In this document: piece after piece, positions 3,237 to 59,030 of the stretch | Numbering within the stretch: position 1 is the stretch's first letter | Layout of the letters: every line of letters begins with the position of its first letter | Position numbers and translations under genes: made by a program | Assembly: GCA_964522195.1 (NCBI GenBank) | Contig: CAZFSV010000002.1 | Span: forward strand, 36,743-100,742 | Source: an uncultured Candidatus Saccharibacteria bacterium | GTDB lineage: Bacteria; Patescibacteriota; Minisyncoccia; Phycocordibacterales; UBA9973 | Length of the DNA: 64,000 bases | Direction: 5' to 3' | The notes under the pieces: model-generated | Databases searched by the model: none | The model's input: only the letters and a program-made list of their open reading frames with translations | Told to the model about the DNA's origin: nothing

Positions 3237-4604
3237 ATGATTAGAAAAGTCATAGTTTTTATTTTTATATTTACATTTTTATATAGTTTTAATAGTAATA
3301 CAACTTATGCAATCGATTGTTTAAAAATTAATTCTTCTTCACCTCAATCCGAGAAAGATTTTTGCCGTGGAGAATTAGCTAAAATTGAAGCAGAATTAGC
3401 AGATCTACTTAAACAACAAGAAGCTCAAAAGAAAAATACTGGAACATTAACAGGGGATGTTAAGTATTTAAATAGTCAAATTAATGCTTTAAAAACAAAG
3501 GTAAAAGCTCGTTCTTTAGCTATTGCGCAGCTAAAAGCTTCTATTAATGAAAAAAGTTCAAAAATAGAAGATTTGTCTTCGAAAATTGAAACTCAGCATG
3601 AGTCTTTAGCTCAATTACTTAGAAATACCAATAATTTTGATGATAATAATTTAATTTATTTATTATTATCAAATCAAAATATTTCTGATTTTTATGCTGA
3701 TTTAGAGTCTTATTCTTCAATGAAAGAATCAATTAAGAAAACAGTAGATGAAATTAAGGGTGTTAAAACAGTAGTAGAAGAAGAAAAGAAAACTTTAGAA
3801 GAAAAAAGAGACGCTGAAAATGACGCTAAAGTAGAACTAGAGACTGCTCAAAAGAAGACCGCTGCCGCAGAAGCAGAAAAGAAAAAATTACTTTCTATTT
3901 CTAAACAAAAAGAAAGTGAATATCAAAAATTAGCTGCGGAGAAAAAAGCTCAAGCAGATAAAATTAGATCTGCTTTGTTCTCTCTTGCAGGTACAACACA
4001 AAGAATTGATTTCGGTACAGCTCTGTCTTATGCAAATGAAGCAAAAAGATTATTTAACATAGAACCAGCTTTTCTTTTAGCTATTTTTAGACAAGAAAGT
4101 AATTTAGGATCTAATGTTGGGCAATGTTTTATGACTGATCCTGCGACAGGTAATGGAGTTGGAGCTAATACAGGTGCGGCTCAAATTAGAGTAATGCATC
4201 CTACTCGTGATGTTCCTGTATTTATGAGTTTAACTGAAAGATTAGGTATAGATTCTTCTAAAACTAGAGTTTCTTGTTGGATTAAAGATTATAGAAATGG
4301 AGTACCTTTTGGTTGGGGTGGAGCTATGGGGCCTGCTCAGTTTATACCTTCTACCTGGAAAGGTTTTGAAACAAGACTTAAAAAGCTTTTAGGGTATGAA
4401 GCAAGTCCTTGGGTTGCAAAAGATGCTTTTATGGCTTCAGCTATGTATTTAACTGATTTAGGTGCCGTAGGAGAAAGTGATAGCGCTCAACAAAGAGCTG
4501 CTTGTAAGTATTATGGTAGTGGAGGGTCTAGTTGTGCTTATAGTCGAAGTGTTATGAACTTTAAAAACCAATATCAAAAAGATATTGAGTTGCTTTCTAA
4601 CTAA
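3237..4604 (+). CDS. Secreted coiled-coil protein with C-terminal MltB/SLT_2-like lytic transglycosylase domain
   Basis: Signal peptide and a long heptad-rich Q/K/E region. C-terminus carries LAIFRQESNLG and GAMGPAQFIPSTW motifs typical of the MltB-family (SLT_2) fold. Confidence 0.55.
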   Translation: MIRKVIVFIFIFTFLYSFNSNTTYAIDCLKINSSSPQSEKDFCRGELAKIEAELADLLKQQEAQKKNTGTLTGDVKYLNSQINALKTKVKARSLAIAQLKASINEKSSKIEDLSSKIETQHESLAQLLRNTNNFDDNNLIYLLLSNQNISDFYADLESYSSMKESIKKTVDEIKGVKTVVEEEKKTLEEKRDAENDAKVELETAQKKTAAAEAEKKKLLSISKQKESEYQKLAAEKKAQADKIRSALFSLAGTTQRIDFGTALSYANEAKRLFNIEPAFLLAIFRQESNLGSNVGQCFMTDPATGNGVGANTGAAQIRVMHPTRDVPVFMSLTERLGIDSSKTRVSCWIKDYRNGVPFGWGGAMGPAQFIPSTWKGFETRLKKLLGYEASPWVAKDAFMASAMYLTDLGAVGESDSAQQRAACKYYGSGGSSCAYSRSVMNFKNQYQKDIELLSN

Positions 4605-16580: not shown

Positions 16581-18539
16581 TTACAACAAATTTTCAGGGT
16601 CTATTTGAATATCAAAGTTTTTTTCTAAATAATTTAATTTTTTATACAATTCTTCGTCTATGTGACTATTTGAAATTAAGTTCGGTGTGGACCAATTTTC
16701 CCTATTTAATTTAATTAAAATATTTACAGTTGTTTTATTCTTTGTTTGTCCATTTGAACTTTTAAAAATTATTGGATTATATTCATTAAAATTCTCTTCA
16801 ATAAATTTTTTGACTTTTAAATTTTCTTCACTGTTTCCAAAATAAGTAAGTTTAATAAATCTTACATAAGGTGGATATTTTAAAATTTTCCTATCTTGCA
16901 ACTCCTCGTTAATATAATTTAATAAATTTTTATTTTTAATACTTAAAATCGCTTCATTTTCAGGATTTCTTGTTTCTATAATTAAATTTTCACGAGTTAT
17001 ATCTATTGTGTTAAATAAAATATTAATCACTTTTTCATTAATTTTGAAATTTGGAATCGTGAATAAAGAATCAAAAGAAGCGATCATAGATAAATCAACT
17101 TTTTCTCTTAGATAAAAGAAAGCCATTTCGGTCCCAAGTAATATAGAATTTTCTGTTTTATAAAATTCATTTATGACTTTTATAGCTTCTTTGTTGTTTT
17201 TAATATTAGTTTTATCTAGTTGGAATATTTTTACGTTTTTTATATTTTTTTCTAATTCCTCCTTGATTTTATCTATACCAATACCTAAAGGTACTAAATT
17301 CCAACCATCACAATGAATACATTTATTCATTGTATTTTCTTCTTTTTTACATTTATTACACAAAAAAATTCTTTGTTCTTTACTTTTAGTTTGATATAAA
17401 ACAAGAGGAGATTTGCAATCTTTGCATAAAACTTCATTTTGACAATCTTTACAGACTGTAAAAGTTGCAAGTCCTTTACGCAAAGCAAATACAAAAATTT
17501 TACCTTTATTTGTAAGGGTTTTTTTAATTTCTAAAATACTTTTTTCGTCTAAAATTTCAAATTTTTTTTCTTCTCGATCTGTATTTTTAATAATTTTATT
17601 TTTATCTAAAATAGTAATTTCTCCAAAATAAGGTAAACGATAAGACATTTTTTCTAATTCGTTTAAATTATCTATTTTTATTCTTTCTATTGTTTCAAAA
17701 CGAAGCAATTTATCAGCTAAAATTAATTTTGCGTTGATTTTTGAAGCAAAAATTTCAATAAATATCCTTAAATCAAAAAATGGTTTTTGAAAAGTTTTGT
17801 AACTATTACTATTTTCTTCTTCTATGATAATAGTTTTTAAATTTAAAATAGGTATTGATAAAAATTGTGGGGTACCTATGATTACCACAGGGTGGGGGTT
17901 TTGAAGAATTTCTTTGATTTTTTCTAAGAGTTTATTTTTGTTTAAATTATTTGATAAGGTATAAACAAATTTTTCTATTCCTTTGTTTAAATTCTCTTCA
18001 AATTCACTCAAAGAGTGATCTGTGGGTAATACAATAAAAATTGATTCTTTGTTAGCAAAAGCACCTCTAATATATCTTTTGTAATAATCTATTCTTTCTT
18101 CTTTAGAATTTTGAAATAATAATTTTTCTGATTTTATTTCAGAATTTCTTACTGTATTTCTTGAAATATCATAATCTTTAGCTAATAAATCATAATTTTC
18201 TTTAATTATGCTTGGAATCAAAAAAGACAACATATAGTTCTTGTTTACAATAAAATATTTACTAGTTAAAAAAACAGCTTCTAAAAATTCTTTTCTAAAA
18301 ATAGAAATTTCTTTCTTTTCAGCTATTTTTTTGATATTGAAATTCATATTTTTAATTTTAGATTTTAAGTCTAGTAAATTTTCTATACTAACAACTAAAC
18401 CTAAACTTTTTTTAGTTTTGATAGTTATGCTTACAATATCACCAACTTCAATATTTTCCTTAGTAAAATAAGTTAGTTCTTCGGCAAAAGCTTGCTTTTT
18501 TAAAGGTAATATTTGTAATACTTTCATTCCTGAATTCAT
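16581..18539 (-). CDS. priA: Primosomal protein N' (PriA) with degenerate helicase motifs
   Basis: N-terminal 3'-DNA-binding domain and two CxxC...CxxC zinc fingers are retained. Aligns collinearly with E. coli PriA, but Walker A is NSKEER (18081-18110) instead of GSGKTE, and Walker B is EEEN (17811-17822) instead of DEEH. Confidence 0.75.
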   Translation of the reverse strand: MNSGMKVLQILPLKKQAFAEELTYFTKENIEVGDIVSITIKTKKSLGLVVSIENLLDLKSKIKNMNFNIKKIAEKKEISIFRKEFLEAVFLTSKYFIVNKNYMLSFLIPSIIKENYDLLAKDYDISRNTVRNSEIKSEKLLFQNSKEERIDYYKRYIRGAFANKESIFIVLPTDHSLSEFEENLNKGIEKFVYTLSNNLNKNKLLEKIKEILQNPHPVVIIGTPQFLSIPILNLKTIIIEEENSNSYKTFQKPFFDLRIFIEIFASKINAKLILADKLLRFETIERIKIDNLNELEKMSYRLPYFGEITILDKNKIIKNTDREEKKFEILDEKSILEIKKTLTNKGKIFVFALRKGLATFTVCKDCQNEVLCKDCKSPLVLYQTKSKEQRIFLCNKCKKEENTMNKCIHCDGWNLVPLGIGIDKIKEELEKNIKNVKIFQLDKTNIKNNKEAIKVINEFYKTENSILLGTEMAFFYLREKVDLSMIASFDSLFTIPNFKINEKVINILFNTIDITRENLIIETRNPENEAILSIKNKNLLNYINEELQDRKILKYPPYVRFIKLTYFGNSEENLKVKKFIEENFNEYNPIIFKSSNGQTKNKTTVNILIKLNRENWSTPNLISNSHIDEELYKKLNYLEKNFDIQIDPENLL

Positions 18540-18576: not shown

Positions 18577-19590
18577 ATGAGTTTATTTTCGAAAAAATTA
18601 GGTATAGATTTAGGTACTGCAAATACTCTTGTTTTTGTGCCTGGAAAAGGGATAGTTTTAAATGAACCTTCTGTCGTATCTGTGTCTTTAGAAGATAATA
18701 AAATTTTAGCTATTGGTAAAGAAGCTAAAGAAATGATAGGTAAAACCCCTGAAGCTATTATTACTTATTGTCCAATGAAAGATGGGGTTATTGCTGATTA
18801 TCGTATTACTGAAGCTATGCTTAGATATTTTATAAATAAAGCAATGGGTAAATTTAATTTATGGAAACCTGATGTTATGGTTTCTGTTCCGGCTGGAGTA
18901 ACTTCAACAGAACGTCGTGCTGTAGTAGAGGCAACACTCAAAGCTGGGGCTCGCAATGCTTATGTTGTTAAAGAACCAATCTTAGCTGCTATAGGTGCAG
19001 GTATTCCTATTTATGAATCTCGGGGTCATATGGTTGTTGATATTGGAGGAGGAACTACTGATGTGGCTGTTATTTCTTTAGGTGGAATTGTAGCTTGTAC
19101 TTCTGTTAAATGTGCTGGCAATAAAATTGATCTTGCTATAGCAGATTATATTAAGAAAACTTTTAATTTAGCTATTGGAGATAAAACTGCTGAAGAAGTA
19201 AAAATAAAAATAGGTGGAGCGATTTCACTTGAAGAAGAATTAAAAGTCACCATAAAAGGACGTGATTATATTCAAGGACTTCCAAGGAGCGCTCAAGTTG
19301 GAACTAATGAAATAGTTAAAGCTATTGATAATGAACTTAAACAAATTGTAAAAGCTATCAAAGACGTTCTGCAAGAAATTCCCCCAGAACTCGCTTCTGA
19401 TATTATTGATAATGGAATTATTATGACTGGTGGAACTTCACTTTTACGCAATTTGTCTGATTTGATTTATAGAAAAACTGGAGTTAAAGCAACGGTGGCT
19501 GAGGATGCCTTGTATTGCGTAGTTAAAGGTACGGGTATTGCGCTTGAGCATTTAGATGTTTATAAAAAAGCTATTTTAAGTAAAAGATAA
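18577..19590 (+). CDS. mreB: Rod shape-determining protein MreB
   Basis: Actin-fold motifs GIDLGTANT and DIGGGTTD. Confidence 0.95.
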   Translation: MSLFSKKLGIDLGTANTLVFVPGKGIVLNEPSVVSVSLEDNKILAIGKEAKEMIGKTPEAIITYCPMKDGVIADYRITEAMLRYFINKAMGKFNLWKPDVMVSVPAGVTSTERRAVVEATLKAGARNAYVVKEPILAAIGAGIPIYESRGHMVVDIGGGTTDVAVISLGGIVACTSVKCAGNKIDLAIADYIKKTFNLAIGDKTAEEVKIKIGGAISLEEELKVTIKGRDYIQGLPRSAQVGTNEIVKAIDNELKQIVKAIKDVLQEIPPELASDIIDNGIIMTGGTSLLRNLSDLIYRKTGVKATVAEDALYCVVKGTGIALEHLDVYKKAILSKR

Positions 19591-19591
19591 A

Positions 19592-20266
19592 ATGTTAAAT
19601 CATATTAATAAAACTAATTTACACCACGCGTATCTAATAGAAGGTGGAGAAGATATTTTAAATTCTCTTTTGGGTTTTATCAAAAAAGAACTTGATATAG
19701 AAACTGTATCGAATCCAGATTTTTATTTTAAAAAATATGATACTTTTAAAATTGACGATGCTAGGTTTTTAATTAGTATTAAAGATGAAAAATCTATAAA
19801 AGGAGATAAGAAAATTGTTATAATACAAACTAATTCTGTTTTAAGAGAAGCTCAAAATGCTATGCTTAAAATGTTTGAAGAACCTATTTTAGACACTATC
19901 TTTTTTTTAATAGTAAAAGACAAAAATATTTTACTGCCTACATTTTTCTCTCGTTTTTATTTTGTTTCAAATGCAGATAAAAACATTTCTTTTGAAAAAG
20001 AAGCAAATGATTTTATAAAAATGAATTTAAAAGACAGATTAGAATTTATTAAAATTTTAACAGTTAAAGTAGATGAAGATGAAGAAGGTTTTGAGGCTCC
20101 TCGCCATAAAGCTTTAGAATTTTTAAATGCTTTAGAGTTTATTTTATCTCAAAAAGAAAATCAAGATAAAGAAATTTTCAATAAAATCTTTGAAATCAGA
20201 AGTTTCTTACGAGATCCTTCAAGTCAAGCAAAAATGCTACTTGAAGCAATAGCTATAAGTTTATAG
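19592..20266 (+). CDS. holB: DNA polymerase III delta'-like clamp-loader subunit (no P-loop)
   Basis: HAYLIEG, AQNAMLKMFEEP and FFSRFYFV resemble delta' box motifs. No GxxGxGK is present. Confidence 0.5.
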   Translation: MLNHINKTNLHHAYLIEGGEDILNSLLGFIKKELDIETVSNPDFYFKKYDTFKIDDARFLISIKDEKSIKGDKKIVIIQTNSVLREAQNAMLKMFEEPILDTIFFLIVKDKNILLPTFFSRFYFVSNADKNISFEKEANDFIKMNLKDRLEFIKILTVKVDEDEEGFEAPRHKALEFLNALEFILSQKENQDKEIFNKIFEIRSFLRDPSSQAKMLLEAIAISL

Positions 20267-20267
20267 A

Positions 20268-20786
20268 TTAATTTCCAAAATTTTCAAAAATTGATTTTTG
20301 AGTTTCAAGGTCTATTTTGTTTGTAGTTAGGATTATCATCTCTGTGGTTAATCCTAAATCTTTTTTAATATTTTCAAATAAATATTCGTATGGTAGGGGA
20401 GAAATCCAGACGGAATTCTTAAGACATACAAATCCTGCTTTTTTTAATAAATAGCGTAATGATTCACGTTCGTTTTTTCTGGTTTCAGGAAGATCGAGAA
20501 TTATCATTCTCCAATATCCATCCCAAGTTGTATTAACTAGAGTATTTTCATTATCTAATTTAAGACTATAAAGTTTCTTTTTTCCTTCTTTAGTAAGGCT
20601 TATGTAGTCTTGATTACCTGAGTCGTGAATTCGAGCAAAACCACTGTTTACGAGGTTTTTGAGGCTTCTGGAGAGGGCATATTTCTCTTTCTTGTCTTCT
20701 TTGTCTTTCAAAGACTTTATAGAGGTAGCCCTTTTTTCAGCTAATTTTTTAAGGATTTTTTTGGAAATATCTTGATTGCTTGACAT
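20268..20786 (-). CDS. PaaX-family winged-helix transcriptional regulator
   Basis: C-terminal WDGYWRMIILDLPETR...LRYLLKKAGFVCLKNSVWISP fits the PaaX_C pattern (WDG.W....LPE..R..LR..L...GFG.L..GVW..P). N-terminal wHTH. Confidence 0.55.
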   Translation of the reverse strand: MSSNQDISKKILKKLAEKRATSIKSLKDKEDKKEKYALSRSLKNLVNSGFARIHDSGNQDYISLTKEGKKKLYSLKLDNENTLVNTTWDGYWRMIILDLPETRKNERESLRYLLKKAGFVCLKNSVWISPLPYEYLFENIKKDLGLTTEMIILTTNKIDLETQKSIFENFGN

Positions 20787-20823
20787 AGATATATCATATC
20801 ATATATACTAGATTATACAAGTA

Positions 20824-20839
20824 TTTCGCGGTCGCGAAA
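20824..20839. promoter_or_regulatory. GC-rich inverted repeat TTTCGCG-GT-CGCGAAA in the divergent PaaX-like/dnaK intergenic region
   Basis: Perfect 7-2-7 palindrome standing out against AT-rich flanks. Does not match CIRCE or HAIR consensus. Confidence 0.45.
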
Positions 20840-20897
20840 AACAAGTAAAATTATATAAATTTATTAAAAATATTATAAATTAACAAAGTAAAACAAT

Positions 20898-22775
20898 ATG
20901 TCAAAAATAATAGGTATAGATTTAGGTACAACAAATAGTGCAGTCGCTATAATCGAAGGAGGAAATCCAAAGATTGTAGAAAATATTGAAGGAGCTCGAA
21001 CTACTCCATCTATAGTTTCTATTGCAAAAAATGGAGATAGACTAGTAGGACTTTTAGCAAAACGCCAAGCCGTAACAAATCCAGAAAATACAATTTATGG
21101 TATTAAAAGATTTATGGGCCACAATTTTGAAGATCCAGAAGTTCAAAAAGATTTAAAAAATTCTTCTTTTAAAATTCAAAAAGGAACTGATGGTGGAGTA
21201 GAAGTTATGATTGGAGATAAATGGATGCGTCCTGAAGAAGTTTCTGCAATGATTTTAGCTAAAATAAAAGCAGATGTTGAAGCAAAAACAGGAGAGAAAA
21301 TAACTGAAGCCGTGATAACAGTCCCTGCTTATTTTAACGATGCTCAAAGAAAAGCTACAAAAGACGCTGGAGTTATTGCAGGGCTTGATGTAAAAAGAAT
21401 TATCAATGAACCGACAGCCGCAGCTCTTGCTTATGGATTTAATAAAAAGAAAAATGAAAAAATTGTAGTATATGATTTTGGAGGAGGAACTTTCGATGTG
21501 TCAGTTTTGGAAATTGGAGATGATGTTATCGAAGTAAAGTCTACTGATGGAGATTCTCATTTAGGAGGACGTGATATCGATCACAAGATTATTGCTTGGA
21601 TTGCAGAAGAATTTAAAAAGACTTCTGGTGTTGATGTTCGTAATGATAAATTAGCACTACAAAGATTAGATGAAGCTTCTGAAAAAGCAAAAATAGAACT
21701 TTCAACAGCAGTAGAAACAGAAATAAATATTCCTTTTATAACTTCAACAGCTGAAGGCCCTCAACACTTATTACTTAAAATGACTCGCGCTCAATTAGAA
21801 TCTATTGCTGACGAATATATAACTCGTTCTATAGAAATCACTAAAAAGGCTTTAGCTGCTTCAGGATTTTCTATGAATGATATTCACGAAATCATAATGG
21901 TTGGAGGTCAAACTCGTATGCCAAAGATAGTAGAAGAAGTGAAGAAAGTTTTCGGCAAAACTCCAAATTTATCTATTAATCCAGATGAAGTTGTGGCTCT
22001 TGGTGCTGCAGTTCAAGCTGGGGTATTAGCAGGAGATGTGCGTGATGTGTTATTGCTTGATGTTATACCACTTTCTTTAGGAATAGAAACTTTAGGTGGA
22101 GTGGCTACAAAATTAGTAGAGAGAAATACAACAATTCCGGCCTCCAAATCTCAAATTTTCTCAACAGCAGCAGACAATCAAACTTCAGTAGAAATTCATA
22201 TAGTGCAAGGTGAACGACCTATGGCAAGCGACAATAAATCCCTAGGACGATTTATTTTAGATGGAGTTCCACCTGCACCTCGTGGTATTCCTCAAGTTGA
22301 AGTTACTTTTGATGTTGATGCTAATGGAATTCTAAATGTAAAAGCTATGGAAAAAGCTTCAGGTAAAACTCAATCTATTCGTATTGAGGCAAGTTCAGGA
22401 CTTAAAGATGAAGATATTAAGAAAATGCAAGCTGATGCAGAACTTAACGCTGAAGAAGATAAAAAGAAGAAAGAATTAGTTGATGTGAAAAATACCGCAG
22501 AAATGACTATGTACACAGCTGAAAAATCTTTAAAAGAGAATGAAGCGAAATTAGACGAAGCTTTGAAAACAGAATTAAATACAAAAATTACAAATTTGAA
22601 AAATGTAAAAGATGGTTCTGATATGGAAGCTATTAAAAAATCAACTGAAGAATTATCAAATGAAATGTCTAAAATAGGAGAAGCTTTAGCGAAAGCAGGA
22701 GAGACTCCAAATACTGAAACTAAAACTGCTGAAGAGCAACCTGTAGAAGTAGAAAACGAAGAGAAAAAAGAATAA
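20898..22775 (+). CDS. dnaK: Molecular chaperone DnaK (Hsp70)
   Basis: [18 protein letters not shown] and the full Hsp70 architecture with acidic C-terminus. Confidence 0.97.
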
Positions 22776-22854: not shown

Positions 22855-25110
22855 ATGCAAATACCTGGATTACCAGAAAATAGAGATTTAACATATATCG
22901 GTTATACAACTTACCGAGGTCAAAACCAACTTTTTGGTATTAAAAGAAAAGACCGAAGGCAACATATGTATATTTTAGGAAAATCTGGAACAGGTAAGTC
23001 TGTGCTTATGTCTAATATGATGATGCAAAATATCATCAATGGTGAAGGAGTTTGTGTTGTGGATCCTCACGGAGAATTAGTCGAAGGAGTACTTCAATCT
23101 ATTCCCCCTCATCGAATGAAAGATGTAGTTTATTTTAATCCAGCTGATACTGATTATCATATTGGTTTTAATGTTTTAGAATTAGTTGATTCAAAATACA
23201 AGCATCTAGTTGCTTCTGGTCTTATGGGAATTTTTACTAAAATTTGGGCCAATGCTTGGTCTGCCCGAATGGAATATATTTTAAATAATACTATTTTAGC
23301 CCTGCTTGATACTCCAGGCACGACTCTACTAGGTATTCAAAGAATGCTTGTCGATAAAGATTATCGTCAGAAGATTATTTCAAATTTAAAAGATCCTGTG
23401 ATTAAGGCTTTTTGGATTCACGAATATGAATCTTGGCAAGATAAATTTAGAAATGAAGCCATAGCACCTATTCAAAACAAAGTAGGTCAATTCCTTTCTA
23501 CTTCAGTTATTCGTAATATTGTAGGTCAATCAAAAAGTACAATAAATATTTTTGATTTAATGAATGAAGGTAAGATTTTCTTGGTTAATGTATCTAAAGG
23601 TAGAATAGGTGAAGACAACTCTAAATTACTCGGAGGTATGATAATTACTAAAATTCAACTTGCTGCTATGGAGCGTGTGCGTATTCCCGAAGAAGAGCGT
23701 AAAGACTTTTATTTATATGTGGACGAATTTCAAAATTTCGTAACAGATTCCTTTGCTTCAATTTTATCTGAAGCTCGTAAATACAGACTTTCTTTAACCG
23801 TGGCTCATCAATATACTGCTCAACTAGTAACAAAAGAGTCTTCTGCTATGCGAGATTCTATTTTTGGTAACGTTGGAACTATGATCGTTTTTCGAGTTGG
23901 TGCTGATGATGCTGATTTCTTAGAGAAAGAATTTGCTCCTGAATTTACTCCTGAAGATATTGTGAATTTGCCTAACTATAAAATTTATTTGAAATTAATG
24001 ATAGACGGTATTACTTCTCGTCCTTTTTCTTCAAAAACAATTCCACCCTTAGTTAAAGGTGGAGATAAAAGCATAGAAGAAGAAGTTATTAAATCTTCTC
24101 GAGAACTTTATTGTCGAACAAAAGAAGACGTCGAAGATGAAATCAATAAATGGAGTGGTATGACACTTGGAGATGATAATTCTAAAGATGGAAATAATAA
24201 AAATAATAATTTTACTGGTGAAAAATTCGAAACAGTTTGCTCTAATTGTGGTAATTTAACTTCTGTACCTTTCAAACCTGAACCTGGTCGGGCTGTTTAT
24301 TGCAAAGATTGTATTATTAAAATTAAAGCAGGAGAAATAAAACCTATTAAAGTTTCTCCTGACCAATTAAAAAAAGACGAAGCTAGATTTTTTAAACCTT
24401 TAGCTGATTTGGGTATAGAATTTGTTTCTACTGAAAATAATATTAAAACTAAAGACACAGAAAGAAAGACAGAAAATAAATCAAATATTGTAGAAAAAAA
24501 AGATTTTTTTAGAAATAAAAAAGATTTTATTTCTAAACCAAAAATTAATAATAATTTTCGAGAAAAACCTAGTGCTTTTACTAAAATAGGTTTAGGTTTA
24601 AAGGAATTACTAGATAAAGCTTTGCATAATGAAACTGATGAAACTGTATCTTTAGAAGAAGTTAAAACCAATAATTTGATTGTACCAAAAGATGAGAAGA
24701 ATATTTCTTTAGAAGATTTAAAATCTAAAAATAATCTAGAAAAAAATAACAACAAAGATAAATCTGCGAATGAAAAAACAATGAGTAGTTTTAAAAGTTT
24801 AATTTTAGAAAAAGAAAAAGAAATAGTAAAAGAAGAAGTCAAAATTTCAACACCAGAAATTAAAATAGAAGAATTTAATAAAGAAGAAAAAGAGGAAGTT
24901 GTTTTAGAGAATAAATCAGAAATAAAAGAACCTATCCACAATACTCCACAGAGCGATGTAGGCGAGGAAAGTCATTTTGATAAATATTATAAAGCTGATT
25001 TTGAGAATTCTAAAAAAGAAAATAAATCTGGTACAGAGCCAAATTTTTCAAAAGAAAATATTCCCGAAGTTCCCGAAGAAGTCCTTAAAAAAATTTTAGA
25101 TCAAAAATAA
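22855..25110 (+). CDS. TraD/VirD4/HerA-FtsK-superfamily P-loop ATPase (type IV coupling protein-like) with C-terminal zinc ribbon and K/E-rich disordered tail
   Basis: RQHMYILGKSGTGKSVLMSN...VCVVDPHGEL (Walker A plus HGE) and FYLYVDEFQNF (Walker B). CSNCGNLTSVPFKPEPGRAVYCKDC zinc ribbon at about 24238-24315. About 260 aa low-complexity K/E/N tail. No TM helices. Confidence 0.55.
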   Translation: MQIPGLPENRDLTYIGYTTYRGQNQLFGIKRKDRRQHMYILGKSGTGKSVLMSNMMMQNIINGEGVCVVDPHGELVEGVLQSIPPHRMKDVVYFNPADTDYHIGFNVLELVDSKYKHLVASGLMGIFTKIWANAWSARMEYILNNTILALLDTPGTTLLGIQRMLVDKDYRQKIISNLKDPVIKAFWIHEYESWQDKFRNEAIAPIQNKVGQFLSTSVIRNIVGQSKSTINIFDLMNEGKIFLVNVSKGRIGEDNSKLLGGMIITKIQLAAMERVRIPEEERKDFYLYVDEFQNFVTDSFASILSEARKYRLSLTVAHQYTAQLVTKESSAMRDSIFGNVGTMIVFRVGADDADFLEKEFAPEFTPEDIVNLPNYKIYLKLMIDGITSRPFSSKTIPPLVKGGDKSIEEEVIKSSRELYCRTKEDVEDEINKWSGMTLGDDNSKDGNNKNNNFTGEKFETVCSNCGNLTSVPFKPEPGRAVYCKDCIIKIKAGEIKPIKVSPDQLKKDEARFFKPLADLGIEFVSTENNIKTKDTERKTENKSNIVEKKDFFRNKKDFISKPKINNNFREKPSAFTKIGLGLKELLDKALHNETDETVSLEEVKTNNLIVPKDEKNISLEDLKSKNNLEKNNNKDKSANEKTMSSFKSLILEKEKEIVKEEVKISTPEIKIEEFNKEEKEEVVLENKSEIKEPIHNTPQSDVGEESHFDKYYKADFENSKKENKSGTEPNFSKENIPEVPEEVLKKILDQK

Positions 25111-26851: not shown

Positions 26852-26875
26852 AAAAACCACCATATGGTGGTTTTT
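26852..26875. terminator. Bidirectional terminator (palindrome aaaaaccaccatatggtggttttt) between rseP and cysS
   Basis: Perfect palindrome flanked by A and T runs, serving convergent genes. Confidence 0.65.
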
Positions 26876-41879: not shown

Positions 41880-44800
41880 ATGAAAAAATATTTATCAGGT
41901 TTTCTTGTTTTTAGTTTAGTTTTCGGAGCTCTAATTTTACCAATCAACCAAACAAATGCTGCTCCAGTAACAATTTTCTCAGAGAGTTTTGGTGATAATA
42001 ACTTAGGTAATGATATGGACCCAATATCATGGAATAGTTGGTCCGATGGAGGAAACAGTGGCGATGATGCAGAAATAAGAGTTGGTTCAAATGGTAATAA
42101 CAATGATTCTGTAAGTCCTAATGGTGGTAGATTTGCTATGGCATTAGGCCAAGATGGTTATTTTTGTAAAACTATAGATACTACAGGATATAATAATGTA
42201 AATCTTTCTTATTATTGGAGAGGTGATAGTAATGCGAATAATAATGATTTTGGATTAGTTCAAATTAAAGAAGCTGGTAATGGAATCTTTTGTAGTGATA
42301 ATTCAGGATGGACTACTTTAAAAAGTCATGCATTAGATATTGATAATAATTGGTCTACTCAATCTGCATTTACAGATAACATATTAAACAATAAAAATTT
42401 ATTACTTCGTTTTAAGGTTGATGCAAATCAAAATACTGAAGATTTTCGTGTTGATGGTATTTTGATAAGTGGAGATTTAATACCTGTTGCTCCAACTACA
42501 GCTAAAGTTACTATTGTAAAATACATCAATGGAGTACCAGCTACACCAGAAAATACTAATAATGCTTCTTTCCCTATGACTGCAACATGGAATGCTACTA
42601 ATATAGGTTCTGGCACAGGTAACTATAATCTAAGTTCTACTGGTTTCAATAACCCAAATCCATATCAAGCTACTACTGCAGATATGACTACAGGAGCTGA
42701 TTATAGTACTTATGAAAATACTGGAACTGCATGTGTCTCACCAATGATGTATGCTCTAACAGGCTATACAACAGGAGATACTTTAAATGATGCTACTTTG
42801 GCTGTTCCATCCCTAACCACTCCAAGTTTTACAAATCTACAAACTGATAAATTCGTAATCGTTTGGAATAAGACTTGTGTTGATTTACCTACTCACTTAA
42901 CTCCAGCTGACAATTCTGTTCGAACTACAGCTGAGCAAACTCTGATAGATTGGTCTGATGTTGTAAGTTGGGCAAGTCCTGTAACTTATATGTATCAATC
43001 AGCTCTTTCAATGGCTACAAATATGGATGGATCATTTACAAGTCCTGCATACACTTCAGGAGCTTTAACTAGTTCAGAAATACCAACTCCAGGTACTCCA
43101 GAAGGTATTTACTACTGGCATGTCAAAGCTACTGATTCTGCAAACAACACAAGTGGATGGACTATTCCTTGGAAAATAACTATCAATAATACAGGAAGTC
43201 TAACTGTAAATAAAAATGTTCTAAAACCAGACGGTGTTACCGAAGTATCAGATAATCAATCTTTCTCTGTAATGCTAAACGGTGGAAATACTCAAAACGT
43301 AAGTGAAAATATTTCATATACTTATACAAATTTAACTCCAGGAACTTACACAGTTACAGAAGGAGTAAATGGTAATTATGAATTTGTTTCTTTCTCTAAT
43401 GACTCTGACTCTGAAACAGCAGGCGCTCAAGTAGAAGTAGTTGCAAATCAAAATACAGTTGTAACAATAACTAACAAACAAAAAAAAGGAACTCTTACAA
43501 TAAATAAAATCGTTACAAATCCTAACGATGGAGAAGCTATCGCTACAGATTTCTCTTTCCAAGTTAACGGAGGCGAAGCTATTGCTTTTACAGATAGTGA
43601 TGACGAAAATAATTTAACAGGTCAAAATATTATTTCTGTAGATCCTGGAACTTATACAATTACAGAAGTTATCCCAGAAGGAGCTTATGCTATATCATAT
43701 AGTGCTAACTGTACTAATGCAGTATTAACAAGCAACAGTAACATAGTTTGTACAATCACAAATAGTGATATTCCTGCAGGTAAAGGTGCTATAACTGTAG
43801 TTAAAAATTTACCTAATGATAACGGAGGAGATTTCGTATTAAGTGATTTTCCTCTTAATGTATCAGGTACAACAACAGAAGAAACACCTATGTCTGTAAG
43901 TGAATCAGTAGCTAGTGGTATTTCTGAATTTTTTACACCAGGAACTTATGTTGTTTCCGAAGATAATCCTAATGAATTAAGTGGTTATACAACAACTATC
44001 AGTTGTACAGATGGAGAAAATACACTAACAAATGGTAATATTACAGTTTCAGATCAACAAGCTTGGGTTTGTACTATTACTAATGATGACGAACCTGCAA
44101 AATTAACTATAATAAAAAAAGTGGTTAATAATGCTTGGATGGGTACTTTAGAAGAAACTTTCAATTTTAACTTAATAGGAGAAGACACTGAAGAAGAGAT
44201 TGCAATCACAACAGAAGCTCCTGAAATGATGGAAGAAGAATCAAAAATCTACGAACAAGATTATCAAGCTATGGGTGAATCAGAAGTTATTACTTTGAAT
44301 TCCGGAAGTTATACTTTAACTGAAGATTTATTACCTGAATGGAATTTAACAGATATTTCTTGTTCTGTTAAAACAGAAGAAACAGAAAATGGTGTATATC
44401 TTTCATTGCAAAATGGTGAAGATGTTACTTGTACTTTTGTAAATACTCGTAAAACAGGAACTTTGGTAATAGAAAAAATTGTAGTAAATGATGACGGTAA
44501 AGAACTTACTGTTTCTGATTTCGCAGGATTTACTATAAACAATAGTGAACCAATTCCTTTTGAATCAGATGAAGACGAAATGTCAGGAGGTAAGACTGTT
44601 ATTTTAGAATTAGGTACTTATCAAATTTCTGAACCAGTAACAGAAGGATATTACAAAGTAACTGAAAATTGTGAAGCTGTAAACATAACAGAAGGTACAA
44701 TAAAAACTTGTAAATTTAGAAATGATGATGTTGGATTCTTTGTTCACTCAGGTGGATCTGGATCTAGTGGTGGTCAAGTTTTAGGAGCTTCTACAGAAAC

Positions 44801-45176
44801 ACCAGCCCCATCACCAACAACTCCTACAGAAACTCCAAAAGGTGAGGTTTTAGGAGCAACTTCATGTAGTACAATTTACTTAAACGACTTCCTGTACTTT
44901 GGAAAGAAAAATAATCCTGAACAAGTTAAGTTGTTACAAACTTTCTTGAATGAAGAATTAGGATTAAAATTAGTAGTGGATGGAAAATTTGGTAGAACTA
45001 CAAGAAATGCAGTTATAGCTTTCCAAGAAAAATACGGAACTGATGTCTTAACTCCTTGGGCTCCGTTTGGACTAAAGAGTGGAAAGGGAACAGGTAACGT
45101 TTACAAGACTACAAAATGGAAAATCAACATGATTAAATGTGCTGATTTGAAATTAGAAGTTCCTCAACTTCCATAA
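41880..45176 (+). CDS. Large secreted surface protein: N-terminal lectin/galactose-binding-like domain, five prealbumin-fold (SpaA/Cna-B-like) repeats, C-terminal peptidoglycan-binding (PG_binding_1) domain
   Basis: Signal peptide. Repeats carry the ...GTYT(V/I)TE... pattern about every 110-120 aa. C-terminal LLQTFLNEELGLKLVVDGKFGRTTRNAVIAFQEKYG is PG_binding_1-like. Confidence 0.65.
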   Translation: MKKYLSGFLVFSLVFGALILPINQTNAAPVTIFSESFGDNNLGNDMDPISWNSWSDGGNSGDDAEIRVGSNGNNNDSVSPNGGRFAMALGQDGYFCKTIDTTGYNNVNLSYYWRGDSNANNNDFGLVQIKEAGNGIFCSDNSGWTTLKSHALDIDNNWSTQSAFTDNILNNKNLLLRFKVDANQNTEDFRVDGILISGDLIPVAPTTAKVTIVKYINGVPATPENTNNASFPMTATWNATNIGSGTGNYNLSSTGFNNPNPYQATTADMTTGADYSTYENTGTACVSPMMYALTGYTTGDTLNDATLAVPSLTTPSFTNLQTDKFVIVWNKTCVDLPTHLTPADNSVRTTAEQTLIDWSDVVSWASPVTYMYQSALSMATNMDGSFTSPAYTSGALTSSEIPTPGTPEGIYYWHVKATDSANNTSGWTIPWKITINNTGSLTVNKNVLKPDGVTEVSDNQSFSVMLNGGNTQNVSENISYTYTNLTPGTYTVTEGVNGNYEFVSFSNDSDSETAGAQVEVVANQNTVVTITNKQKKGTLTINKIVTNPNDGEAIATDFSFQVNGGEAIAFTDSDDENNLTGQNIISVDPGTYTITEVIPEGAYAISYSANCTNAVLTSNSNIVCTITNSDIPAGKGAITVVKNLPNDNGGDFVLSDFPLNVSGTTTEETPMSVSESVASGISEFFTPGTYVVSEDNPNELSGYTTTISCTDGENTLTNGNITVSDQQAWVCTITNDDEPAKLTIIKKVVNNAWMGTLEETFNFNLIGEDTEEEIAITTEAPEMMEEESKIYEQDYQAMGESEVITLNSGSYTLTEDLLPEWNLTDISCSVKTEETENGVYLSLQNGEDVTCTFVNTRKTGTLVIEKIVVNDDGKELTVSDFAGFTINNSEPIPFESDEDEMSGGKTVILELGTYQISEPVTEGYYKVTENCEAVNITEGTIKTCKFRNDDVGFFVHSGGSGSSGGQVLGASTETPAPSPTTPTETPKGEVLGATSCSTIYLNDFLYFGKKNNPEQVKLLQTFLNEELGLKLVVDGKFGRTTRNAVIAFQEKYGTDVLTPWAPFGLKSGKGTGNVYKTTKWKINMIKCADLKLEVPQLP

Positions 45177-49049: not shown

Positions 49050-49084
49050 AAAACTACAAAGGGTTACCCTTTGTAGTTTTTTTA
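49050..49084. terminator. Bidirectional terminator (ctacaaagggt-t-accctttgtag)
   Basis: 11-bp stem flanked by aaaa and tttt, between convergent genes. Confidence 0.6.
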
Positions 49085-55075: not shown

Positions 55076-56161
55076 TTAAAATAATTTATGATTAAAATCA
55101 TAGTAACCATTTTTAATTAAAACATCTTCAATTAAACTTGTACGTAAGTTTATTGCAGAGTTACTTGAATAAAAAGCTGTTTTTTCCCAATCATGATTTA
55201 ATAATAAATTCTTAATTTTTTCTTTATCTTTTAATATTACAATTCCATATCCTCTACGTTGAGGTAATTCTTCAAAAGAAAGGTATGGTTTTATGTCTTT
55301 ATAGGTTGTAGATGGCAAATAAATATCACATTTATAAAGCATATTTTTATTTCTTGTATTAGAAGGCAATCCTCCATCTGATAAAGAATAAATTTTTATA
55401 TACTGTAAACATGTTTTTCTTTCAGGGATCTTAATATTTTCTGTTTTTATTTTGGTCCACACTTGAAATATAGTATGAATTTTAATTTCCTCACCACTTG
55501 GATATATAAAAGAATTAGGAGGAATAATTTCTGAATATGCTAACTTGTAACCAAAAACTCTTTTTTTAGGAGATCCTTTACCGTCACTATTAAATAGTTG
55601 TGGCAATATAAAAGCAACAACATCAGCAAATTTGTAAGAATGATTAATGAATTGTAAAGCTAAATGACCTCTTAAGCCAAATGGAGGATTTCCCACAACA
55701 AAATATTTAAGATTTTTAGATGGAATCCATTTTAAATAATCATCTTTAATAATAGTTTTTGCTTTTGGGTCTATGTCTATGCCTATAGAGTTTTCTGGTA
55801 AAAATTTCAAAAAACTACCATTTCCAGCTGAAGGTTCAATATAAACATAATCTTTATCATCTATACCTAAATCAGTAATAATTTTTTTAAATTTTTTAAT
55901 ACAACCTAATGCAATATTTTCTTTAGTATAATATTGATCTTTTTCTTTTATAGAAAAATTATCTTCATATTTTACATTTAATAATCTTAAAAAATCTAAT
56001 TGATAATTTTTAGGTACTTTGTTTTGTTGGACCCATCTTTTTACAGTTCCTTTATGTATGCCAAAATGATTTGCTAATCTATCAAGAGTAAAAACATTTA
56101 AAGATTGCTCAAATAGCTGATTAATTTCAAAATTATTTATATTTGTGTTTGTATTTTTCAT
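55076..56161 (-). CDS. N6-adenine DNA methyltransferase, gamma class (M.TaqI-like), with N-terminal HTH extension
   Basis: Motif X DQYYT, motif I EPSAGNGSF, IGIDIDP, motif IV NPPF in M.TaqI order. N-terminal FTLDRLANHFGIHKGTVKRWV HTH. C-terminal target-recognition region. Confidence 0.75.
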   Translation of the reverse strand: MKNTNTNINNFEINQLFEQSLNVFTLDRLANHFGIHKGTVKRWVQQNKVPKNYQLDFLRLLNVKYEDNFSIKEKDQYYTKENIALGCIKKFKKIITDLGIDDKDYVYIEPSAGNGSFLKFLPENSIGIDIDPKAKTIIKDDYLKWIPSKNLKYFVVGNPPFGLRGHLALQFINHSYKFADVVAFILPQLFNSDGKGSPKKRVFGYKLAYSEIIPPNSFIYPSGEEIKIHTIFQVWTKIKTENIKIPERKTCLQYIKIYSLSDGGLPSNTRNKNMLYKCDIYLPSTTYKDIKPYLSFEELPQRRGYGIVILKDKEKIKNLLLNHDWEKTAFYSSNSAINLRTSLIEDVLIKNGYYDFNHKLF

Positions 56162-59004: not shown

Positions 59005-59030
59005 TAAAAAAGCCCCTACTTTTAGGGGCC
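59005..59030 (-). terminator. Terminator for minus-strand gene 59074-59754 (gcccct-loop-aggggc with T-run on minus strand)
   Basis: U-tract present only on the minus strand. Confidence 0.5.

Follow-up and report, generated by a model that had tools for sequence, protein, structure and literature searches.

A GC-rich palindrome upstream of dnaK most likely marks a hitherto undescribed chaperone-gene repressor of Patescibacteria

A conserved palindrome between dnaK and a divergent regulator gene

We analyzed a divergent gene pair in a 64,000-nucleotide stretch of contig CAZFSV010000002.1, from an uncultured Candidatus Saccharibacteria bacterium (hereafter the window). One gene of the pair is dnaK (Hsp70; 20898-22775, plus strand; PF00012, E=1.3e-242), and the other encodes a 172-amino-acid protein with a winged helix-turn-helix (wHTH) and a Cas2-like domain (20268-20786, minus strand), which we refer to as the regulator. 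The 111-bp spacer between them (20787-20897), from the start codon of the regulator to the dnaK ATG at 20898, carries a perfect 7-2-7 inverted repeat, TTTCGCG-GT-CGCGAAA, at 20824-20839. The GC content of the spacer is 19%, and 12.6% without the palindrome, compared to 30% for the window. A preliminary description of this stretch had pointed out a perfect palindrome in an AT-rich divergent promoter region, and both its position and the composition of the spacer are confirmed here. The core palindrome is the sole match in 64 kb even when up to three mismatches are allowed (shuffled sequences lead one to expect 0.15), and the degenerate core form TTCGCGNNCGCGAA is likewise single in the window. 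Perfect inverted repeats with 7-nt arms, at least four G/C per arm and a loop of 0-4 nt are expected 0.78 times per window by chance, and we dropped within-window statistics as proof of the palindrome. Because these statistics are not significant, its significance must come from conservation across genomes. The window contains three further GC-rich perfect inverted repeats (26855-26872, 49057-49073 and 59012-59029), all between convergent genes and probably bidirectional terminators.

The control of heat-shock and chaperone genes is known from a handful of systems, namely sigma-32, HrcA with its operator CIRCE (controlling inverted repeat of chaperone expression), HspR with HAIR (HspR-associated inverted repeat), CtsR, and RheA. 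That the palindrome corresponds to neither CIRCE nor HAIR, as the preliminary description held, is borne out by pattern scans: CIRCE (TTAGCACTC-N9-GAGTGCTAA) had no match at up to three mismatches in the window and no exact match in 213 loci, and HAIR (CTTGAGT-N7-ACTCAAG) had four three-mismatch matches in the window, none of them near dnaK, against a chance level of 2.9.

To compare the spacer across relatives, we scanned species-representative genomes for regulator orthologs and took in 80 of the 294 confirmed loci, a sample that covers about 1% of each of 80 genomes, alongside about 10% of one genome. By their annotations, the homologs belong to Candidatus Paceibacterota, Nomurabacteria or Patescibacteria, and at the closest loci the regulator is 89-93% and DnaK 93-95% identical. 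The palindrome is present in the relatives that keep the regulator: the dnaK upstream regions, whose comparison the preliminary description had proposed, hold exactly one strong position weight matrix (PWM) site at the same place in 79 of the 80 loci, and the 80th locus is truncated. The window and 77 of the 80 loci have in common a block of about 60 bp whose position is fixed relative to the regulator start. Mean column conservation is 0.86 in the promoter block, 0.81 in the operator and 0.51 in the downstream spacer.

The 7-2-7 core that had first been described is thus present and conserved, but the conserved unit is a two-fold symmetric, operator-like element of 30 bp (20817-20846, no strand), whose flanks overlap predicted promoter hexamers. 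In the window this element reads AC-N4-W-TTTCGCG-GT-CGCGAAA-W-N4-GT, and its consensus in relatives is AC-N4-W-TTT[C/A/T]G[C/T]G-NN-C[G/A]C[G/A]AAA-W-N4-G[T/C]. When the first T of the core is numbered 0, the bases A-7, C-6, A-5, A-4, T1, G4, G6, C9, C11, A13, A14, and G+21 are invariant in 68-70 distinct orthologous sites. The commonest single core variant is the perfect palindrome of the window, while asymmetric forms such as TTTAGTG-GT-CGCGAAA are equally frequent, and the asymmetric centre is found in both orientations relative to dnaK (GT at 116 sites, AC at 44).

We also searched metagenomes with the degenerate 30-bp pattern. Among the 120 matches listed, 99 adjoin the regulator and/or dnaK: 96 lie beside a regulator homolog and 3 more beside dnaK at a contig edge. 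The remaining 21 include 16 on contigs with a GC content of at least 0.44, from unrelated organisms, and the AT-rich matches away from dnaK fall in a coding sequence (L107) or in unrelated contexts (L109, L131, L163, and L185). No chaperone gene other than dnaK or grpE stands at any of the pattern matches listed. Judged by these alignments, the palindrome is the core of an operator-like site of about 30 bp that has been kept with the regulator and dnaK across hundreds of Patescibacteria genomes.

The linkage extends beyond the closest relatives. In about 76 of the 80 genome loci, dnaK is divergent from the regulator and directly upstream of it. Distant homologs were represented by proteins scoring 100-200 bits against the family profile, and the five informative cases are all divergent from a chaperone operon: grpE-dnaK-dnaJ (P0131), grpE-x-x-dnaK (P0126), grpE-dnaK (P0155), or grpE (P0136 and P0152). 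Their spacers share the design TTGACAAGT-[core]-ACTTGTCAA, with cores such as TTTTTTG-TG-CATAAAA, TTCCGCG-TA-CGCGAAA, TTTTGTA-TC-CACAGAA, and TTACGCG-AC-CGCTTAA, and after the palindrome these lineages have TTGTCA or TTGCAA, a spacer of 16-17 nt, and then TATAAT or TATACT. The earlier proposal that the palindrome is the binding site through which the divergent wHTH regulator controls dnaK and/or itself gains strong comparative support from the 79 of 80 loci, from the 96 of 120 metagenome matches listed that lie beside a regulator homolog, and from the distant grpE-dnaK(-dnaJ) layout, which together make such a role probable.

The absence of grpE, dnaJ, and hrcA around dnaK, also remarked on earlier, holds for the window, where grpE, dnaJ, groES/EL, and hrcA were found neither among the 44 open reading frames (ORFs) scanned nor by tblastn (E. 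coli DnaJ-N, GroES and GroEL probes gave no match). It does not hold for many relatives, where grpE is found beyond the regulator, on the side away from dnaK. In many Paceibacteria, grpE ends an rpsK-rpsD-rpoA-rplQ-rplM-rpsI-grpE string that converges on the 3' end of the regulator gene (for example at 4517-8490 in L003 and 4504-8404 in L017); grpE and dnaK therefore flank the regulator there, and grpE is outside the reach of the operator. The deeper lineage L201 has the same ribosomal string, followed by the regulator and then by grpE-dnaK-dnaJ. At the corresponding place (18577-20266), the window has mreB and a holB-like gene, with no grpE in its 64 kb, and dnaJ follows dnaK in only a minority of the related loci.

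Promoters, paralogs and the regulator protein

The element lies among well-conserved promoter signals. A promoter scan identified TTGACA-N18-TATACT (P1), directed towards dnaK and matching 11 of 12 consensus positions, with its -35 hexamer at 20780-20785 (plus strand, overlapping the ATG-TCA codons of the regulator on the other strand) and its -10 hexamer at 20804-20809 (plus strand). Across 78 orthologous loci, TTGACA is kept in 77, the 18-nt spacer in 77, and a -10 of the form TATACT, TATATT or TATAAT in 76. The transcription start of P1 is predicted near 20815-20817, which would place the operator at about +1 to +30, and a strong promoter with an operator in this position is typical of repression. 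On the minus strand, we read a candidate -10 of the regulator's own promoter, TATGAT (20793-20798), 6 nt upstream of the ATG. The motif TAnnnT stands exactly 6 nt before the regulator ATG in 76 of 78 loci, and the distant loci L201 and L214 have the same layout. Because its -10 sits so close to the start codon, the regulator promoter is probably leaderless. Its candidate -35, TTGTAT (20815-20820, minus strand), overlaps the left outer arm of the operator; over 79 sites this hexamer is TTGTAT in 52, TTGTCA in 11 and TTGTTA in 7, and distant lineages have TTGTCA-N16/17-TAnnnT-N6-ATG in front of the regulator. The right outer arm also serves as the -35 of an additional predicted chaperone promoter close to consensus (P2), both in another Paceibacteria subfamily and in the distant lineages. 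Downstream of the operator in the window, the only candidate for a second dnaK promoter is TTAACA-N17-AAAAAT, which overlaps the dnaK ATG and is implausible.

We found little sign of additional sites. The preliminary description had suggested searching for other copies of the palindrome as members of a regulon; the palindrome is single in the window, where no second PWM site of at least 8 bits occurs (the true site scores 32.8 bits), and 585 kb of related loci yielded only three weak, sub-threshold extras. In the small fraction of each genome that was covered, the evidence points to a local, possibly single-operon regulator. A near-copy, TTTCGCT-GT-CGCGAAA, was seen once, in the rpsD-rpoA spacer of L075 (7676-7695); it scores 13.4 bits, compared to at least 19.3 bits for true sites, and may be a chance occurrence or a small hairpin. 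Two AT-rich metagenome contigs (L109, ~2195-2235, and L163, ~1248-1290) have a longer palindrome, TTGACCAAAATTTCGCGGTCGCGAAA..TGGTTAA, with the identical 16-bp core and with no regulator or chaperone gene nearby. Its neighbours in L109 are, on one side, a gene for a predicted membrane protein (pilC-like by sequence) and, on the other, two small ORFs that resemble a toxin/HTH-antitoxin pair. This palindrome may be another target, or it may have nothing to do with the regulator.

The same core centre recurs in a subfamily of paralogs of about 190-230 amino acids, which have a hydrophobic N-terminal segment and are unlinked to dnaK. When four unlinked paralogs were examined without bias, two had a G[C/T]GGTCGC centre upstream of their own gene: L211-L213 (upstream of 718/310), with ..CCGTGGTCGCGG.., and L222 (1366-1385), with TTTCCTGCG-GT-CGCAGGAAA. 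The other two, P0169 and P0177, have no comparable palindrome upstream, and a third positive case (L162, ~1293-1322) was found through the pattern scan. This distribution links the G[C/T]GGTCGC centre with the protein family and not with dnaK, and it suggests a family-wide recognition code and autoregulation.

The regulator itself is PaaX-like, yet not a true PaaX, since it combines a winged helix with the central Cas2-like domain of PaaX and has no PaaX_C domain. The preliminary description had assigned it a wHTH N-terminus, which structure prediction supports, and a PaaX_C-like C-terminus, which instead matches PaaX_M (PF20803, 'PaaX central Cas2-like domain'; residues 86-165, E=8.9e-22, 77.4 bits against a cut-off of 24). 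PF08223 (PaaX_C) was not found in the protein, which ends at residue 172, straight after the Cas2-like domain; a longer relative, P0261, does have PF08223. At the N-terminus, the Pfam search gave a weak winged-helix match (DUF6293_C), and it found no HrcA domain in the regulator. An AlphaFold2 model (predicted local distance difference test score, pLDDT, 74.9) has a wHTH of three helices and a beta-hairpin at residues 3-64 and a beta-alpha-beta-beta-alpha-beta domain at residues 92-171. The top Foldseek match of this model is E. coli PaaX (8a39, E=1.1e-5), followed by Rv0674, 3l09, MarR/ArsR proteins, and Cas2. The link to solved PaaX comes from this fold search alone, because a sequence search of the PDB with the family profile returned nothing significant (best E-value 0.085). 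The regulator scores below the cut-offs of both the PaaX equivalog TIGR02277 (35.4 bits against 264.55) and the Cas2 family TIGR01573 (15.5 bits against 24.5).

We found 1958 homologs of the regulator, and an exhaustive profile search gave 3390 clusters at E<=1e-3, of which only 20 reach E<=1e-30. By these numbers, the regulator belongs to a tight orthologous group inside a large family whose members mostly have 180-200 amino acids. Mean pairwise identity is 83% in the Cas2-like half (residues 86-160) and 52% in the DNA-binding half (residues 1-85). Such high conservation of the Cas2-like domain is not what one usually sees in a transcription factor, and it suggests that the domain contacts another macromolecule that is conserved as well. 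The domain contains long invariant runs, for example ERESLRYLLKKAGFVCLKNS.WISP, and D98, compared by eye with the Cas2 motif, appears to be a retained Cas2-type Asp.

A proposed repressor and its alternatives

Taken together, we consider it probable that the palindrome is the operator core of the divergent PaaX-like regulator, whose dimer would bind 20817-20846 and repress both dnaK and its own gene until stress relieves the repression. In the mechanism that we propose, a dimer of the regulator would occupy the symmetric site of about 30 bp, which is predicted to start at about +1 to +3 of the sigma-70-type promoter P1 and to overlap the -35 of the regulator's putative leaderless promoter. Because of this position at the P1 start and over the regulator -35, one bound dimer would shut both promoters, and so might repress both dnaK and the regulator gene. 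Proteotoxic or heat stress would then lift the repression, with the sensing step possibly located in the unusually conserved Cas2-like domain. Sensing could occur by intrinsic thermolability, or DnaK or unfolded proteins could titrate the regulator, in the manner of HspR/DnaK or HrcA/GroEL.

Several observations weigh against this proposal or limit it. The downstream promoter P2 of other lineages is missing in the window and its subfamily, and the architecture is not uniform. In this subfamily, the right outer arm is degenerate, with ACAAGT instead of ACTTGT. Mutual information between regulator residues and variable operator bases is diffuse, with no signal localised to the recognition helix; the top columns are scattered over both domains of the regulator, and the signal is probably dominated by phylogeny. 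The promoter and start assignments come from matches to consensus sequences, in a phylum for which little is established about promoters, and responsiveness to heat or stress is deduced only from the identity of the target genes. Given the small part of each genome scanned, the regulon might be wider, or another regulator, for instance HrcA, might be encoded elsewhere. Binding by this particular protein, repression as opposed to activation, the start sites and the stress signal are what we infer from the arrangement of genes and sites.

The palindrome might instead act as RNA, forming a hairpin in the dnaK 5' untranslated region that serves as a thermometer, an attenuator or a stabiliser. With P1 as the promoter, transcription would indeed run through the element at about +2 to +31, and the version in the window can fold at -8.8 kcal/mol over 34 nt, with some orthologs reaching -13 to -15. 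The aligned sites, however, show no compensatory covariation (score 0.082 versus a shuffled mean of 0.101, with 494 of 500 shuffles at least as high); the 77% pairing stems from symmetric column composition, and the pair 13-22 is unpaired in 31 of 70 sequences. The predicted minimum free energy lies above -2 kcal/mol for 66% of the orthologous cores and is 0.0 for several fully conserved sites. Moreover, the asymmetric centre occurs in both orientations, the element of distant lineages precedes or spans the -35 of the chaperone promoter, and no Rfam family matches 20600-21100 at E<=1, all of which makes an RNA role very unlikely. Even less credible is that there is no regulator site at all and that the symmetry arises from back-to-back divergent promoters with mirrored -35 boxes (TTGACA / TGTCAA). 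In many lineages, the outer arms TTGACAAGT / ACTTGTCAA do fall on -35-like hexamers of the two strands, but mirrored promoters leave unexplained both the invariant G4, G6, C9, and C11 of the core, in a spacer with otherwise 13% GC, and the GYGGTCGC centre upstream of unlinked paralogs.

Alternatively, the site could be bound by a different transcription factor, global or heat-shock-related, that is encoded elsewhere, with the PaaX-like gene being merely a conserved neighbour. The fraction of each genome that was scanned leaves room for such a factor. Nevertheless, the site stays with the regulator gene when dnaK is displaced by inserted genes or absent from the contig, and it also co-travels where an IS200-like ORF has come between the two. 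Only one copy of the site occurs throughout the sequence examined, unlinked paralogs have the same core upstream of their own genes, and dnaK has neither CIRCE nor HAIR; we therefore regard a foreign factor as improbable. We hold a similarly low opinion of the possibility that the regulator does bind the site but acts as an activator or dual regulator of dnaK. In lineages with P2, the site is centred at about -46 relative to the predicted P2 start, upstream of the -10, as might suit an activator. The promoters concerned are near consensus (TTGACA-N18-TATACT; TTGCAA/TTGTCA-N17-TATAAT) and should not need activation, however, and the predicted position of the site is on -35 hexamers or at about +1 to +30. 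In addition, the closest relative with a solved structure, PaaX, represses by competing with RNA polymerase (PMC9493321).

The proposed autoregulated repression of dnaK by the PaaX-like protein can be set against known systems. PaaX, the repressor of phenylacetate catabolism in E. coli and Pseudomonas (8a39, 3l09; TIGR02277), shares with the regulator two of its three domains, the N-terminal winged helix and the central PF20803 domain, and the two proteins are homologous in these. For PaaX, a 15-bp box, WWTRTGATTCGYGWT, has been reported as well; it has TTCGYG in common with the half-site found here. PaaX has about 305-316 amino acids, compared to 172 here, and its C-terminal helical domain, the reported binder of phenylacetyl-CoA, is missing from the regulator. 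PaaX is an autoregulated repressor at divergent promoters, and its operator has been reported as TGATTC(N27)GAATCA (PMC9493321), which differs from the 7-2-7 core and 30-bp palindrome found here. No paa genes occur among the 44 window ORFs scanned, and the target here would be dnaK/grpE. The regulator thus fails PaaX membership on four counts: it has no PaaX_C, it scores below the cut-off, its operator differs, and there are no paa genes.

HspR, a MerR-family repressor of the dnaK operon in Actinobacteria, Helicobacter, and Campylobacter, offers a functional parallel, as a dedicated autoregulated repressor beside the dnaK operon with an inverted repeat at the dnaK promoter and a small regulon. 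Feedback by DnaK is known for HspR and is a plausible model here. HspR is a MerR protein, however, and unrelated to the regulator with its wHTH and Cas2-like domain; HAIR has no match at dnaK here; and hspR is the last gene of its operon, whereas the regulator gene is divergent from the operon. HrcA/CIRCE is similar in its negative control of grpE-dnaK-dnaJ from a palindromic operator between promoter and start codon, and the regulator of the distant relatives lies upstream of grpE, like hrcA in Firmicutes, but in divergent orientation. CIRCE has a 9-9-9 structure in place of the 7-2-7 with a GC core, and the regulator is not HrcA. The system would work like HspR/HAIR and HrcA/CIRCE, with a dedicated palindromic operator at the promoter of the DnaK system beside an autoregulated repressor, yet it fails the defining tests of both families. 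The predicted wHTH also resembles MarR and ArsR/SqrR structures, as does the divergent autoregulatory layout, and a palindromic core of 16-20 bp, in which TTT/AAA blocks stand about 10-11 bp from each other, is compatible with a dimer that contacts adjacent major grooves. Dimerisation would here use the Cas2-like ferredoxin-fold domain and not the MarR helical bundle, and no solved MarR protein has a significant sequence match to the regulator (best PDB E-value 0.085). With Cas2, the CRISPR adaptation nuclease, only the fold is shared: in the window, the regulator is neighboured by holB, mreB, dnaK, and a TraG-like ATPase, and not by cas1 or CRISPR.

We propose that the locus most likely represents a new kind of chaperone-gene repressor/operator pair that is a variant of known regulatory logic. 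In the literature searched, we found no description of dnaK or chaperone regulation in Patescibacteria (Candidate Phyla Radiation, CPR), a huge and largely uncultured radiation, nor of a PaaX/Cas2-like heat-shock regulator. The locus provides a concrete, testable candidate, with a 172-amino-acid protein, a 30-bp operator with known invariant bases, and defined promoters. The candidate system is kept in hundreds of genomes and reaches grpE-dnaK-dnaJ operons in deeper lineages, and in it the PaaX/Cas2-like scaffold would be put to a new use, with no domain for a small molecule. Its design appears compact, with one palindrome over two overlapping divergent promoters, one of them leaderless. More speculatively, the regulator could represent an undescribed, Patescibacteria-wide family of chaperone-gene repressors (wHTH plus Cas2-like, a PaaX without its ligand domain) that takes the place of HrcA/CIRCE or HspR/HAIR, and whose Cas2-like domain serves as a stress sensor through interaction with DnaK/GrpE (feedback titration) or through heat-labile dimerisation; we put this forward tentatively and think it rather doubtful in this full form.

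Variable insertions and other genes in the window

Extra, variable ORFs lie between the operator and dnaK in L001, L016, L063, L011, L012, L015, L018, L023, L029, L033, L056, and L059, and these would fall under the same operator. The ORF inserted in L001 and L016 (and, from a partial reading, in L063) resembles a low-molecular-weight phosphatase or ArsC (MKKVIFICKRNRFRSQ...), and the ORFs of the other loci, which are unrelated, encode small hypothetical or membrane proteins. Between the operator and the regulator, L145 (575-1288) and L159 (382-1086) have an IS200/Y1-transposase-like ORF, as judged by the motif ...NHFHIL.., which is apparently co-transcribed with the regulator.

The window also encodes, 80 bp beyond the end of dnaK, a 751-amino-acid TrwB/TraG/HerA-like coupling-type ATPase (22855-25110, plus strand) with a treble-clef zinc finger and an extended low-complexity tail rich in K, E and N. 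Three large ORFs had no Pfam match: 16581-18539 (minus strand, 652 amino acids; threshold 1e-4), 55076-56161 (minus strand, 361 amino acids; 1e-5), and 3237-4604 (plus strand, 455 amino acids; 1e-5). The first of these is Cys-rich, with CxxC motifs, and appears PriA-like by eye. Finally, the 1098-amino-acid protein encoded at 41880-45176 (plus strand) has SpaA-type prealbumin-fold repeats and a peptidoglycan-binding domain and is likely a cell-surface protein.

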